Of a DNA stretch of 64,000 nt, positions 57,813 through 62,829 are shown in pieces. Under the pieces are notes generated by a model that searched no databases, was not told the origin of the DNA, and worked only from the letters and a program-made list of their open reading frames with translations. Origin of the DNA: Scenedesmus sp. PABB004 (Eukaryota); the NCBI GenBank assembly GCA_014905635.1, contig CM026547.1, positions 2,232,001 to 2,296,000 on the forward strand, in the 5' to 3' direction. How positions within the stretch are numbered: position 1 is the stretch's first letter; each line of letters begins with the position of its first letter. The position numbers and the translations under genes are program-made.

Positions 57813-59674
57813 TCACTCCGCCGCGACCGCGCGGCGCGCCATCTCGAGCGCGCCGTCGTATGTGGCGTTGCCGCCGATGAACCCGCCCGCGTGCACAAAC
57901 ACGCCGCCCGGCACGCCGCTCGCCTCGGACAGCGCGTCGTCGCGCAGGCCGCGCCACGCGGCCGGGAGGCCCTTGCGCTGCTCAAAGCTGCCCGGCGCGG
58001 GCGGCACGCACTGGATGCGCCACTTGCGTTCGCGCTCGTCCTCGTACAGCACGTACAGGATGGGGCTGCTCACGCGCAGCTCCTCCTCCAGCGCAAACAG
58101 GTGCTCCTTCCACGGCACGCCGCCCTGCGCCCCGCGGCGCGGCGGGGGTGGGCGGCAGCGGGCGCGCGCGGCGCCGTGCGCGTGCGGTGGCGGCGCGGCG
58201 CGCGCGGCGGCGGCAGGGCGCGCCGCCGCGCGGCTGCGGGCGGGCGAGGCGCGGGCGGGCGGGCGGCTGCGGGCGGGCGGGGCGCACCGCCTTGAGCACC
58301 ACGATCTGGCCGCTGGGGTCGACCGTGAGGCGCTCCTGGATGGCCGCCGCGACGACCTGCTTCGCCGGCAGCCACACGCCCGCCACGTACTTGACCGCCT
58401 CCAGGAACTCACCGCCTGCGCGCGCCCGGGGGCGCGTGAGCGCGGCGGCGCGGCAGGCGGCACGCTCCCGCGCCGCCGCGGCCGCGGCGTGCACCCGCGA
58501 GCGCCATGGCCTTTGCAAAGCCCGCGTCGAGCGTCTCGTCGGTGTACGCCTCGTTCCAGGCGGGGTTGAACCGCGCCACGCGCGCCGCGAGCGTCGAGTT
58601 GTTGACATACCTGCGTGCGCGCCGCGCCGCGCCGTGGGGCAGCCGTGGGGCGGCCCGCGCGCGGTCCCGCGCCGCCGCCGCCGCCGCTGCATCGCCGCCG
58701 CGCGCGCACCGCGCGGGCGCGTCGGTGTCGAACTGGCTGACGCCGTTGTCGATGGCGTCGACCGCCTCCATGAAGGAGCGGTAGACCGCCAGGTAGGCCG
58801 CCTCCACGTCGGCGTGGCCCTCGGGCAGCTTCATCGCGGCCGCGACAATCTCCCGCCCATAGTGCTTGTACACCAGGCCTGGCGGCGAGCAGGGCGGAGC
58901 GCGGGCGGGCGGTGGGCGGGGAGGGGCGCGCCCCGCGGCCAGCCGCGCGCGGCGCCGGGAGCACGCGCCGGGGCGCCGCGCCGCCGCGGCGCCGGCGGCC
59001 GCACCCGCGCTGGAGAGCTTGGTCGTGAAGCCGTGGCCAAAGACCTCGTCGAAGCCGCGCTGGTGGTGGTCGTAGCGCGCGGCGGCGGGGTCGTACACGC
59101 CGCCGACGTCAATCACGACGTCACAGTCGGCCAGCACCGCGGGGTCGCGCGACCTGCGGCGCCAAGCGCGCCGCGCACTCAGCGGCGGCGGCTCCGGCTG
59201 CGGCGTCGGGCCGCCGGGCCGCGCCCGCACGCACGGCGGCCGCGCGCGCGCGCCTGACGATGCTGCAGTCCTTGAACTGCGACGTCTGCTTGAGCATGAA
59301 GCAGCCCAGCGCCTGCGCCGCCGCGCCACGGCCAGCGCTCGGCGCGCGCCGCGTGCGCTGCTGCCGGCACCGGCGCCGCGCTGCAATGGGGGGCCCGCCC
59401 CCGGCGCCGCGCCACGCGCCTCATCGCAGTGGAAGGTGCCCGAGTGCGTCCCGATGCTCACGGCCTTGCGCTTGTGCGCGCCGGCCTCGGCGGCCATCAC
59501 GCGCTGCTGCTGCCGCCGGCGCTGGCTGGGCGAGGCGCGGGCGCTGGCTGTGAGCGCCGATCTGCTCACGGGAGCTCCCGGGAGGCGCGCCAAGCGTGTC
59601 GACGCTGCTGCAGCGCGCAAGGCCGGGAGCAAGCACGATGAGCGCGCCAACGTCCGCGTGAATGATGCCAGCAT
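57813..59674 (-). CDS. MYG1: MYG1 (UPF0160) DHH-type exonuclease; multi-exon
   Basis: IGTHSGTFHCDE, DVGGVYD...YDHHQRGF, KLSSAGLVYKHYG, AVDAIDNG, WRGLRD and FVHAGGFIGGN. Confidence 0.95.
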
Positions 59675-59937
59675 TGTGACGCCGCCAGAGACACGTCGGG
59701 GTGTCGCGGCGCGTCGCGGCGGCGCGCTGAGCCGCGATGTCACTTGCAAGCTGCAACCGACAGTGCAGTTCAGCCGGGCGGCGCGCAACACACTCCCTGG
59801 CGACCAGAGGCGAAGGCTGCGACACGCGTGGGCCAGCTCGCGCGCCCGCCGGCGCACCCCGCCGCGCACGCGCCCGCCGCCGCTGCTGCTCCGCGTCGCG
59901 GGCGCTCCGCGCGGCCGCGCCGCCGCGCGCGGCCAGG

Positions 59938-61469
59938 ATGGTAAAGTTCAAGCTGGAAGCCCTGGGGCAGGGCATGAGGAGCCTGGACAGCGGCCTGTCG
60001 ACGGCGGTGAAGACGCTCGACACGGGCCTGAGCACCGCCGTCAAGGGCGCGGGTGCGCCGGCGCGCGGCGGCGGGGGCGCCGCGCCGCGCCGCGGGCGCC
60101 GGCGGCGCCGGCGGCAGCCGAGCGCCATGCCGCCGCCGCCGCAGGCGCCGCTGCGGGCGCGGTCGGCAGCGGCGTGGGCGGCGTCGTCGGCGCGGCGACC
60201 AACGCGGGGCTGTCGGGCGTCTTCTCCCTCGGCCGCGGCTTCAGGTGTGCGCCCGGGCAACCCCACGGCGCGCGCGCGCGCGCGCGTCACGCCTGCGAGC
60301 TGCGGGCTGCGGGCTGCCGGTGCGGCGGCAGCAGCCAGCGCGCGACACGGGCGGGGGCTGCGCCCGCGGCGCCGCCGCCAGGGACTTCATCCTGCGCGGC
60401 ACGGTGGTGGAGCTCGCGGTCGCGGTCGTGCTGGGCACGGCGTTCACCAACCTCATCGCGGCGGCCACCTCGGTGCGCGCGGCGCTGCGGGCGGGGCGGG
60501 CCAGCTGGCGCGCGGCGCGGCGCGGCGGGGGCGGCGGCAGCAGGGGCGGTTGGCGGCGGCTCAGCGCGCGCGCCGCGCGCGCTGTGCGCGCGCAGGACTG
60601 GATCACGCCCCTGATCGGCGCGATCTTCCGGGGCTCCAACTTCCAGGAGCTGAGCTTCCAGCTCAACGGCAGCACGTTCAACTACGGGCACTTCATCAAC
60701 GAGTTCATCGTCTTCATACTCGTCTGCTTGCTGCTCTACTTTGCGGTGGTCGTGCCGCTCGAAAAGGTGCGCGCGGGCGCAGCCCACGGCGGGGCGGAGC
60801 GTCGCGCGCTGTGCTGCGTTGCGACGCGCGCCGCGCGCCGCGCCGCCGCAGCTGCAATTCGCGGCGTTCAAGCACCGCGCGATCCTGCGGGACTGCCCGT
60901 ACTGCTTCGAGGAGATCAGCCTCGCCGCGTCGCGCTGCCGCTACTGCTGCGGCGAGCTGGAGGTCGACGCGGACATCCTGCACGCCATGGAGATGGCCGA
61001 GGCGGCGATCGACTCGCAGGCCAGCAAGAGCTGGCTCTCGCGCCGCTTCGCGCGCTGCTTCAAGAGCAAGACGGCGGTGCTGCAGGAGACGGAGCAGGGC
61101 GGCGTGGAGATGGCCATCGCCGACGACGAGGCCGTGAACGCCGCGCTGCCGCCGCGCAGCATGGCCAGCGCCACCGGCGAGCCGCGCCAGGCGGGCCCGC
61201 CGACGGGCACGAGCTGGCGCCGCGTGAGCAGCCGCGGCTCCAGCGCGGCCGGGTCGCCCGCGGCGAGCTTCACCGGGGACGCCCCCGCGAGCTACCTGTC
61301 GGCGCGGAGCTCGTCGGCCACGTCCGGCGGCGGCAGCCGGCTCGGCCCCGGCCGCAGCAGCAGCACGTCGCCGCCCGCGGTCGCCGCGGGCGACGCGACC
61401 CTGGACGTCGCGGCGCTGCAGGCCCGCCTCGCGGCCGCCGGCAGCAGCAGCGGCGTGCGGCGCTTCTGA
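59938..61469 (+). CDS. mscL: Large-conductance mechanosensitive channel MscL homolog with a C-terminal Cys4 knuckle and Ser-rich tail; 5 exons
   Basis: Removing introns 60053-60144, 60245-60381, 60473-60595 and 60767-60851 gives GFRDFILRGTVVELAVAVVLGTAFTNLI..DWITPLIG...FNYGHFINEFIVFILV..LYFAVVVP...RDCPYCFEEISLAASRCRYC. Confidence 0.9.
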
Positions 61470-61985
61470 GCGCGGCTCGCTGCTCGCGCTGGCACGGCGG
61501 CTTGCGGCAGCACTGTTCACTTTAATCAGTTGATCGCTTCGCGCGCACGCGCGCTGTCCAACCAACGAACGCGGCTCGCAAGCTCCGGGCGCGCCGGACC
61601 GACCTTGACTGTCGTTGCGCATCGTTACGGCTGCACCTGGGGCATACGCATGAGCTCGTGGGCACACAAAGACTGCTGGCCTGAGCGCTCGGCCAACTGA
61701 CGACGACCGGGGGACGTGTGTGCGGGGCCCGCGCGCCGGTGTGTGGCTTTGCGCGCCCCGCCCGGGCACGGCGGCGCGCGCCTCCGCGCGGGTGGCACAG
61801 CGGCGGCGGCGGGAGGTGGAGGGTGATGCCATGCAGCCCGCAGCCTGCAGCGGCGGGACGTGCGGCAGCGGCTTCGGGGGCGCCGCGGCAGCAGCGGCGC
61901 CCGGCGGCGCCCGGCGGCCCCCAGCGGCCCTCCCGCGCGCTATCGAGGAGCGGGCGCCCCGGTTTGGGGTGCGAAAAAGGTAAAA

Positions 61986-62057
61986 GGGGAACTGCGGGAA
62001 TTGAACCCGCGACCTCTCGTACCCTAAACGAGAATCATACCACTAGACCAAGTTCCC
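61986..62057 (-). tRNA. tRNA-Pro(AGG), intronless
   Basis: GGGAACT/AGTTCCC acceptor stem, D-arm TGGTCTAGTGGTATGATT, anticodon arm CTCGT-TTAGGGT-ACGAG and T-loop GGTTCAATTCC. A TTTT Pol III terminator follows at 61982-61985. Confidence 0.97.
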
Positions 62058-62829
62058 GGAAGCCGCGCAAGACAGCTCCCGTCACATGTGCTATTCTCAA
62101 GACCTCCGGTGAAGGAGGCGCGTTCGGTGAGGTTGCCCGTCGAGCCATCTGCGCGTAATATGTACAGCATGCCTCAAATTTGGCCAAATCGCACCCTGCC
62201 ATCCTTTCGCACCTGTGACCCCCGCAACGTGTTAGGGGGGCCCGGGAGGGCCACTCAGACCCACTGTTGAGCGGGGGGGAGGAACAACTCGCCACAAAAC
62301 ACCGCCAAAAGTCGACGATACTGCGCCACGGCGCGCGCCAGCGCGCCCAACAGCGCCCACGCGACACGCCACACACGCACACCGGCCGCGCGCGCCCGCG
62401 CCGCCGCCGCCGCGGGCCGCACGCCGCCCGCCGACGGCGCGAGGCCGCGCGGCCCGCCGCGGCCAGCGCAGAGCCCGCTGAGGTCGCGCCCCAGCTCGTG
62501 CGGCTCGCGCCCAAGCTCGCAGGCGCGGCCGCGCGCTGGCGCACCAGCCGGCGCGTGGCTGCCGGCGACGCGCCCGTCGCGCGGGGGCGCCGGCGTCGAA
62601 GCGCGCCCATCGGACGGGCGCGCGGGCTGCGCGCGCCACACGGGCCCCAGCCCGCCGCTGGCCACGATGCAGCTGCTCTGTGCTCCGTGCTGCTCCGCTG
62701 CGGCCGGGCCGGTTGCACGCGGCGGTGCGGCGCTGCGCGTGCACGTCACTCAGAGCCCCGCTCGCGCCGCCTTCCTGCCGCCGCGCACGACACAGGGGCC
62801 AGCCGCGCAGCACGCAGCCGCCCGCCGTG

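Follow-up and report, generated by a model that had tools for sequence, protein, structure and literature searches.

In the parts of the literature that were available, the large-conductance mechanosensitive channel MscL is treated as prokaryotic and the mechanosensitive channels of green plants and algae as MscS-like; an algal MscL contradicts this usual textbook distribution. The bacterial-type mechanosensitive channels credited to green plants in the available text of two papers are indeed MscS-like (PMC7652255, PMC11085791), as the initial annotation of the locus considered here had held. The locus lies at positions 59938 to 61469 of a 64,000-nucleotide stretch of the genome of the green alga Scenedesmus sp. 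PABB004 (the window, meaning the whole stretch that was analysed). Its spliced product is an MscL-family member, is annotated in databases, belongs to a chlorophyte clade probably derived from a bacterial zinc-ribbon MscL subfamily, and is apparently unstudied.

The solved bacterial MscL structures used for comparison are those of M. tuberculosis (2oar/6ctd), S. aureus (3hzq), E. coli (9tiv/28oa) and M. acetivorans (4y7k). The PABB004 product resembles them in its Pfam family, in the order of its elements (helix S1, first transmembrane helix TM1, loop, second transmembrane helix TM2), in the LAVAVV.GTAFT core with the gate Leu and Val, and in the ITPLI start of the loop. It differs from them in being encoded by a spliced, nuclear gene, in having an N-terminal extension of about 70 residues, in reading RGT-VV-E and not RGN-hh-D, and in carrying a four-cysteine (Cys4) ribbon, a new helix and an Ala/Ser-rich tail of about 130 residues in place of the helical bundle.

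A second comparison is with the bacterial zinc-ribbon MscL subfamily, which is apparently uncharacterised and is exemplified by loci in Acidipila rosea (L033), Nonomuraea (L039 and L043) and Paenibacillus dakarensis (L077). The algal protein shares its architecture through the fourth Cys, as well as the distance from TM2 to the motif, which reads CPYCFEEISLAASRCRYC in PABB004 and CPYCLSxIPxAATRCAYC in the bacterial proteins. The latter are 130-150 aa long, end about 5-15 residues past the ribbon and always keep the Asn of RGN, whereas the algal proteins usually have three further features, namely a fifth Cys, a Cys within TM2 and a long tail. Other chlorophyte MscL homologs (Scenedesmus, Micractinium, Coccomyxa, Nannochloris) fall in the same clade as the PABB004 protein and likewise combine MscL with the zinc ribbon. 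Three features are confined to Scenedesmaceae, namely RGT, a start with MVKFKLE and the long N-terminal extension rich in Gly; in the trebouxiophyte proteins the linker motif is RGN (or RGS), and S1 is often preceded by a Cys-rich GC.G..C.GF segment. Finally, the MscS-like channels (MSL2/3, MSL1 and Chlamydomonas MSC1) are also bacterial-type mechanosensitive valves in photosynthetic eukaryotes, as far as the accessible portions of PMC7652255 and PMC11085791 describe them. By analogy, the physiological role of the algal protein is likely to be similar to theirs, although their fold and family are unrelated to MscL.

Gene structure and family assignment

Inspection of the reading frames over positions 59300-62300 joins five exons and four GT..AG introns on the forward strand into one gene, with the following features:

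59938..60052, + strand: exon 1, with the start codon, the N-terminal MVKFKLEALG..SLDSGL and then a Gly/Ala/Val-rich part; GC content at third codon positions (GC3) 0.95
60053..60144, + strand: intron 1, 92 nt, GTGCGC..CAG, GC 0.93
60145..60244, + strand: exon 2, a linker rich in Gly, Ala and Val whose end, GVFSLGRGF(R), begins the S1 amphipathic helix; GC3 0.97
60245..60381, + strand: intron 2, 137 nt, GTGTGC..CAG
60382..60472, + strand: exon 3, with the end of S1, the RGT-VV-E linker and TM1 LAVAVVLGTAFTNLIAAATS, which has the hydrophobic gate Leu and Val
60473..60595, + strand: intron 3, 123 nt, GT..AG, in frame and stop-free
60596..60766, + strand: exon 4, with the extracytoplasmic loop DWITPLIGAIF..NGSTFNYG and TM2 HFINEFIVFILVCLLLYFAVVVPLEK; Pfam MscL positions 36-95
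60767..60851, + strand: intron 4, 85 nt, GTGCGC..CAG
60852..61469, + strand: exon 5, with a linker, the Cys4 zinc ribbon, an amphipathic helix that is conserved, a disordered tail rich in Ala and Ser that has the conserved LDV..L motif at its end, and the stop
60894..60950, + strand: Cys4 zinc-ribbon motif CPYC-x10-CRYC followed by a fifth Cys, read from the sequence

The ATG lies at 59938 and the TGA ends at 61469. The joined coding sequence (CDS) of 1095 nt consists of 364 codons plus the TGA, has no internal stops and gives a 364-aa protein, and all four introns start with GTG(C/T)G, end with CAG and have a GC content of 0.85-0.93. The initial annotation had described four host-style introns, and this description is borne out by the GT..AG bounds, by the intact 364-codon frame and by the splicing of junctions 2-4 in transcripts of relatives. 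The motifs it had quoted (S1, TM1 VVELAVAVVLGTAF, loop, TM2, Cys4 and Ser-rich tail) all occur in the exon translations, which contain FRDFILRGT, VVELAVAVVLGTAF, DWITPLIGAIF, YGHFINEFIVF and CPYC-x10-CRYC, and the final 133 residues include 27 Ala and 23 Ser.

The Pfam MscL profile (PF01741) matches 60383-60766, that is, exons 3 and 4 read through intron 3, with an E-value of 1.4e-16 and 61.4 bits, compared to a cutoff of 27.4. The match consists of two stretches flanking intron 3. The Pfam search that had been proposed as a check of the family assignment comes out in its favour. The same profile scores 81.8-128 bits in all ten algal and bacterial relatives tested, including 91.3 bits for P0002, the cleanly spliced ortholog of Scenedesmus sp. 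NREL 46B-D3, whose TM1 and TM2 are nearly identical to those of the window. On the mscL equivalog model TIGR00220 (cutoff 71), P0002 scores 74.6 and the Coccomyxa homolog P0035 scores 86.6. It should be noted that these curated-library scores refer to read-through exons 3-4, to the GenBank model (P0001) or to orthologs, and not to the 364-aa spliced product. All eight NCBIfam MscL equivalog models stay below cutoff on the read-through fragment, because this query is a fragment with a retained intron.

Comparison with solved structures gives the same family. In a phmmer search of P0002 against PDB sequences, all eight matches are MscL chains, the best being 6ctd (E 1.8e-14) and 2oar (E 8.9e-14). 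The TM1 core LAVAVV.GTAFT is identical in P0002 and 6ctd/2oar. Exon 3 corresponds to the Pfam MscL profile up to about position 35 and was aligned to M. tuberculosis MscL 2oar/6ctd via P0002. At the TM1 constriction, ELAVAVVLGTAF aligns column for column with DLAVAVVIGTAF of 2oar/6ctd, and the Leu and Val of D-L-A-V-x-V are present. These are presumably L17 and V21 in M. tuberculosis numbering.

An AlphaFold2 (AF2) model of P0002, made from 69 aligned sequences, has a mean predicted local distance difference test score (pLDDT) of 65.7. Its helices span residues 47-69 (S1), 72-104 (TM1) and 124-156 (TM2), the loop forms a hairpin at 115-122, the Cys4 motif is covered by two short pairs of strands (strands 163-165 and 172-174), and a long helix lies at 191-221. 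The pLDDT is about 90 over residues 160-220, while residues 1-47 and 244-311 are disordered and the tail falls below 50. With this model as the query, the top seven PDB matches of Foldseek are MscL structures, with E-values of 1.5e-3 or higher, 2oar being found at 1.5e-3 with a probability of 1.00. The S1-TM1-loop-TM2 topology of MscL is thus present in the ortholog by both approaches. The C-terminal helical bundle of MscL is absent from the model, which has the zinc ribbon and a single long helix there instead. Taken together, profile, alignment and predicted fold indicate that the PABB004 product is an MscL-family protein.

The individual exons and junctions are supported as follows. The N-terminus encoded by exon 1 aligns with MARIKLETLG of P0002 and with MVRIKLENFG of the Enallax transcript P0031, and this conservation validates the exon. 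Junction 1 is identical in the GenBank model and otherwise rests on the frame, since the Met exon is out of frame with exon 2 unless intron 1 is removed; no relative's transcript spans it. Exon 2 can be aligned with P0002 and P0031. Junction 2 is spliced in P0031 (Enallax costatus), joining GFR to DFILRG, and in P0024, a read-through open reading frame (ORF) on a relative's contig, similarity stops after GFR, at the intron 2 site. Junction 3 is spliced in P0031 and in P0004 (Tetradesmus deserticola). Junction 4 is spliced in transcripts P0004 and P0006, joining PL(N/Q)K to LQ(Y/F)AAFK, and similarity is lost at the intron 4 position in P0007 and P0011, two further read-through ORFs on relatives' contigs. 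An upstream in-frame ATG at 59737, 201 nt 5' of 59938, would add a 67-aa Arg/Ala/Ser-rich, transit-peptide-like extension. This candidate was rejected as non-coding because the GC3 of 59737-59937 is 0.78, compared to 0.95-1.0 in the exons, and because the orthologs begin at the conserved Met.

GenBank already names the product "mscL [Scenedesmus sp. PABB004]", with 405 aa and three introns. This model equals the 364-aa model plus 41 residues from 60473-60595, i.e. intron 3. The 41-aa Arg/Gly/Ala insert sits in the extracytoplasmic loop and is missing from all eight other sequences of alignment A1 and from all 20 others of the algal-clade alignment A5. Judged by these alignments, the four-intron model is better than the three-intron one, and the GenBank model should drop the 41-aa retained intron. 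In-frame introns of this kind can escape gene callers because stop codons are rare in a genome of about 79% GC. Among other public models, XP_005644161.1 of Coccomyxa subellipsoidea C-169 (771 aa, 'Dor1-domain-containing protein') clusters with a 180-aa MscL, and several Nannochloris 'desiccata' models of about 360 aa that are named ribosomal protein L24 cluster with a 187-aa MscL. These Coccomyxa and Nannochloris models appear to fuse the MscL gene with its neighbours.

The zinc ribbon and the RGT linker

The CPYC-x10-CRYC motif occupies residues 174-191 of the spliced product, 15 residues past PLEK and after TM2. This corresponds to the pattern of the zinc-ribbon subfamily, CPxC-x10/11-CxxC about 10-20 residues after TM2. 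C-x2-C-x8-16-C-x2-C follows TM2 in 120 of the best 150 library matches (with a spacing of 10 in 113 and of 11 in 7), the Cys4 motif is found in 120/120 matches listed in the search that gave identities to Coccomyxa P0035, and it is found in 75 of the best 80 bacterial loci (one genome per species) from a scan of genome contigs made with the bacterial alignment A3; all three counts are biased because the queries themselves carried the Cys4 motif. The first and third of these counts agree with the earlier statement that such a Cys4 knuckle occurs on a subset of bacterial MscL proteins. Those bacterial loci come from Actinomycetota, Acidobacteriota, Chloroflexota, Bacillota, the Candidate Phyla Radiation (CPR), Armatimonadota and Dormiibacterota, and include one Gloeobacterales and one Melainabacteria locus (Cyanobacteriota). 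In the bacterial subfamily, too, the ribbon stands in place of the C-terminal bundle.

Pfam zinc-ribbon families remain below threshold on this region: UPF0547 has an E-value of 0.029 in the window and of 5e-4 at best in bacteria, and DZR is also sub-threshold. In Foldseek, the ribbon region is weakly similar to RanBP2/NZF zinc fingers, with an E-value of about 1. The zinc-ribbon MscL subfamily is absent among the eight PDB matches of P0002, and the open literature yielded no paper with both 'MscL' and 'zinc ribbon'.

Downstream of the motif, a fifth Cys is present in 16 of 31 algal-clade sequences and in 2 of 80 bacterial ones. Scenedesmaceae and a GC-rich algal-like group share a conserved helix behind the ribbon and a conserved LDV..L motif at the C-terminal end. 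Cysteines recur near the membrane as well: most algal members have a Cys in TM2 along with the fifth Cys after the ribbon, and many trebouxiophyte-type members have a Cys-rich G-C-x-G-x-x-C-x-G-F segment just before S1 (P0178, P0005, P0033, P0059, P0045, P0049 and P0044, in alignment A5). As pure speculation, these membrane-adjacent Cys residues could be acylation sites.

The linker between S1 and TM1 departs from the R-G-N-h-h-D of MscL and reads R-G-T-V-V-E. In the accessible part of a study of E. coli MscL, the R13-D18 linker is highly conserved, hydrophobic modification of N15 leads to gain of function, D18C gives a strong phenotype, and N15 and D18 are proposed to seed a water chain at opening (PMC4569298). 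The Asn is kept in 80/80 bacterial loci, and RGN is present in all 114 proteins newly listed in the P0035-identity search; the description of RGN as a near-invariant motif that reads RGT here is therefore correct. Within the algal clade (n=31), RGN is kept in 22 members, Thr is found in three Scenedesmaceae and Ser in five others (RGS, RSS, HPS), so that RGT is seen only in Scenedesmaceae and loss of the Asn only within the algal clade. In Scenedesmaceae the linker Asp is also replaced by Glu, which turns N-h-h-D into T-V-V-E. These substitutions are conservative at the sequence level and leave the profile-based family membership unaffected. Three long-tailed, Ala/Gly-rich algal-clade proteins of 410-530 aa (P0039, P0041 and P0053) read F-L-R-S-S for F-L-R-G-N, with the Gly lost too, and have the tail motif V-A-L-D-V in common with Scenedesmaceae.

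Nuclear setting, relatives and origin

The gene is a spliced nuclear gene of a green alga, with host-like codon usage and introns. Its GenBank contig is 4,853,734 bp long, the GC content is 0.74-0.81 throughout the window (0.79 overall), and the GC3 of the CDS is 0.978. At 58409-59497 (-) lies a MYG1/UPF0160 homolog (PF03690, 172.7 bits) that is arranged head-to-head with the MscL gene, the two start codons being 440 bp apart. It has GTGCG donors as in the MscL gene and CCAG/GCAG acceptors. At least two in-frame introns of the MYG1 homolog (123 and 102 nt) are read through by a stop-free frame. About 520 bp downstream of the MscL stop, at 61986-62057 (-), lies a tRNA-Pro(AGG) gene; A34 Pro tRNAs are typical of eukaryotic nuclear genomes. 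The earlier placement of the gene in a green-algal nuclear genome is consistent with its four introns, its GC3 and the intron-bearing MYG1 neighbour with the same donors.

A profile built from three algal-type sequences retrieves 12,430 proteins at E <=0.001 among 1.84 billion representatives. The named chlorophycean carriers are Scenedesmus sp. NREL 46B-D3, Enallax costatus and Tetradesmus deserticola. The named trebouxiophycean ones are Coccomyxa subellipsoidea (KAK9918657.1), C. elongata, C. sp. Obi, Micractinium conductrix (PSC74947.1) and Micractinium sp. CCAP 211/92, together with Nannochloris 'desiccata' (Trebouxiophyceae), which has two MscL paralogs. One MMETSP transcript is labelled Gloeochaete wittrockiana and could be a contaminant. 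Among the 30 clusters looked up and the 120 matches listed, there are no Chlamydomonas, Volvox, streptophyte or fungal names; since only these were covered, absence from those groups cannot be claimed.

Two unrooted trees place the algal sequences together. Tree 1 (101 rows, 146 columns, LG+C20+F+G4) comprises 21 algal or algal-like and 80 bacterial rows, which are parted by one branch with an ultrafast bootstrap (UFBoot) of 99 and a Shimodaira-Hasegawa-like approximate likelihood ratio test (SH-aLRT) value of 97 in the careful search. The branch is recovered in 98% of 200 bootstrap trees, a bootstrap that was not fully settled, and the quick search gives an SH-aLRT of 95. Tree 2 (107 rows, quick search) includes 76 bacterial or bacterial-like rows, among them those nearest the algal profile. 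In this tree the common ancestor of the 10 named algal rows subtends 31 rows, none of them bacterial (SH-aLRT 94), and the sister group of the algal clade is unsupported (67). The Micractinium sequences fall in two subclades. Coccomyxa P0035 shares 50-64% identity with bacterial proteins across some 70-77% of its length.

These data fit a single origin before the Chlorophyceae/Trebouxiophyceae split, followed by duplications, and the sequence comparisons support one old acquisition, or endosymbiont inheritance, before that split over a recent transfer into Scenedesmus. The initial annotation had proposed horizontal acquisition and a phylogeny with bacterial, fungal and algal homologs. The former is no more than plausible, there being one algal clade without a resolved bacterial sister; the latter yields the algal versus bacterial division with the support given above, in trees that contain no fungal homologs. 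Fungi carry MscL homologs. The trees single out neither a donor nor a direction of transfer, because they rest on a short alignment with few non-ribbon bacterial MscLs and no fungal MscL.

Two particular sources were considered. Among viral contigs, alignment A6 matched 16 loci (L081-L096) with 32-44% identity, many of them at contig ends. A virus-borne origin has no support, because none of the 16 is a close relative of the algal clade; these loci may be bacterial prophage flanks instead of phage genes. As for a cyanobacterial (plastid) origin, the Gloeobacterales and Melainabacteria loci fall outside the algal clade, and two loci are too thin a basis for exclusion.

Proposed function, location and significance

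We consider it probable that the locus is an expressed-type nuclear gene of five exons whose 364-aa product is the subunit of a bacterial-type, non-organellar tension valve of the MscL family, descended from one ancestral acquisition. The subunits would assemble as a homo-oligomer, a pentamer by analogy with bacterial MscL, and membrane tension would open the TM1 Leu/Val constriction into a large non-selective pore that serves as an emergency valve under hypo-osmotic or rehydration shock. The N- and C-termini would both be cytosolic; the zinc ribbon and the next helix would stand in for the bacterial C-terminal bundle, and the long Ser/Ala-rich tail may be a eukaryote-specific regulatory or anchoring appendage. 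The ancestor would be a bacterial zinc-ribbon MscL that was acquired once, before the Chlorophyceae/Trebouxiophyceae split. The protein would reside in the plasma membrane or an endomembrane. Such a non-organellar membrane is favoured because the N-terminus is conserved and has just 2 Arg in its first 70 residues, and hence is not presequence-like, and because other algal members have just about 10-30 residues before S1.

Several points weigh against this account. The non-organellar location is its weakest step, resting as it does on the absence of a transit-peptide-like N-terminus, the conductance and oligomer state of the algal members are attributed to them by homology, and their zinc binding is putative. 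The T-V-V-E linker means that gating may differ, or that the function of the protein may have shifted. The GenBank model scores 55.1 on TIGR00220, below the cutoff of 71, because of its retained intron 3, and the support for splicing comes from transcripts of Enallax and Tetradesmus, none being from PABB004. On the algal side of the trees, 13 out of 21 rows in tree 1, which are metagenome or Logan proteins, and 20 out of 31 rows in tree 2 were judged algal by features that include tails, the TM2 Cys and the fifth Cys, and the Gloeochaete row of tree 1 is possibly a contaminant. The alignments have about 146-152 columns, with only five bacterial MscLs that lack the zinc ribbon and no fungal MscL.

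The alternative that survives best, which we nevertheless regard as unlikely, is that the channel resides in the chloroplast envelope or the mitochondrial inner membrane and relieves osmotic stress of the organelle, the N-terminal extension of about 70 residues being a targeting signal. Scenedesmaceae proteins do have about 60-70 extra residues before S1, the first 47 residues of P0002 are disordered in the AF2 model, and the bacterial-type MscS homologs of plants are organellar according to the available text of one source (MSL2/3 in plastids, MSL1 in mitochondria; PMC7652255). However, orthologs have the extreme N-terminus in common, a degree of conservation that would be unusual for a cleaved presequence, and the first 70 residues are Gly/Ala/Val/Leu-rich with only those 2 Arg. 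In addition, the homologs of Coccomyxa, Micractinium and Nannochloris have the short leaders noted above, and the Arg/Ala-rich upstream in-frame extension is non-coding by its GC3 (0.78 compared to 0.95-1.0).

A changed role appears more doubtful still. Here the MscL fold would be kept in a regulated conduit or sensor whose gating is controlled by the zinc ribbon, the Ser-rich tail and the conserved helix between them, and the N-to-T and D-to-E replacements would reflect altered gating. Eight of the 31 algal-clade sequences have Thr or Ser where RGN has its Asn, a replacement that no clearly bacterial sequence shows, and the conservation of the post-ribbon helix (pLDDT of about 90) and of the LDV..L motif in Scenedesmaceae and the GC-rich algal-like group would suit such a role. 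Against this role, conservation of the TM1 gate and of TM2 equals that in bacterial MscLs, 22 of the 31 algal-clade members keep RGN, and no result obtained points to a partner or ligand.

Scarcely credible is an artefact, either bacterial contamination of the assembly or a decaying, unexpressed relic of transfer: MscL is overwhelmingly bacterial, and most of the best 150 of the 12,430 library matches are short and of bacterial type, but the four spliceosomal-type introns, the host-like GC3 of 0.98, the intron-bearing MYG1 gene head-to-head and the tRNA-Pro(AGG) gene downstream, the intact reading frame and the transcription of orthologs in Enallax and Tetradesmus effectively refute contamination.

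The tension valve of a non-organellar membrane can be extended into a wider proposal, which we offer tentatively as a possibility that may well prove wrong. The core chlorophytes may possess a eukaryote-specific MscL clade whose ancestor, a zinc-ribbon MscL of soil bacteria, was captured once. Its members would be emergency valves of the plasma membrane, used at rehydration or hypo-osmotic shock by coccoid algae that have walls and are often aeroterrestrial or desiccation-tolerant (Scenedesmaceae, Coccomyxa, Chlorellaceae, Nannochloris). The clade would have gained eukaryotic controls, namely acylatable Cys residues beside the membrane, a cytosolic zinc-ribbon-plus-helix module and a phosphorylatable tail, and the change of the linker N to T/S could retune the gating threshold.

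No description of an algal MscL was found in the open literature, subscription journals lying outside the search, and a large-conductance mechanosensitive channel together with Scenedesmus or with microalga returned no papers there. None is described in the available text of PMC7652255, PMC11092101, PMC7935092, PMC12806904, PMC9930137, PMC3681921, PMC11085791, PMC13463886, PMC6727746, PMC4569298 or PMC5578686, one of which mentions, in its accessible part, an unpublished knock-out of a fungal 'MscL-like channel' (PMC13463886). The initial annotation had noted that already characterised chlorophyte orthologs would remove the novelty. Such orthologs exist and are annotated in GenBank and UniProt, and therefore the novelty is lower, but none was found to be characterised.

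The family assignment itself is ordinary and already part of public annotation. What it brings into view is a spliced, codon-adapted MscL clade in two green-algal classes, meaning that the simplest and best-understood tension-gated channel would operate, or be repurposed, in photosynthetic eukaryotes too. The clade would be a clean case of a bacterial membrane channel turned eukaryotic gene, and it points to a bacterial MscL subfamily that is very common and has its zinc ribbon at the C-terminus. For microalgae used in biofuel and wastewater work, such a channel also provides a manageable system in which protection from osmotic and rehydration stress can be studied. If the proposed plasma-membrane valve is correct, it would be the first large-pore MscL-type tension valve at work in a photosynthetic eukaryote.

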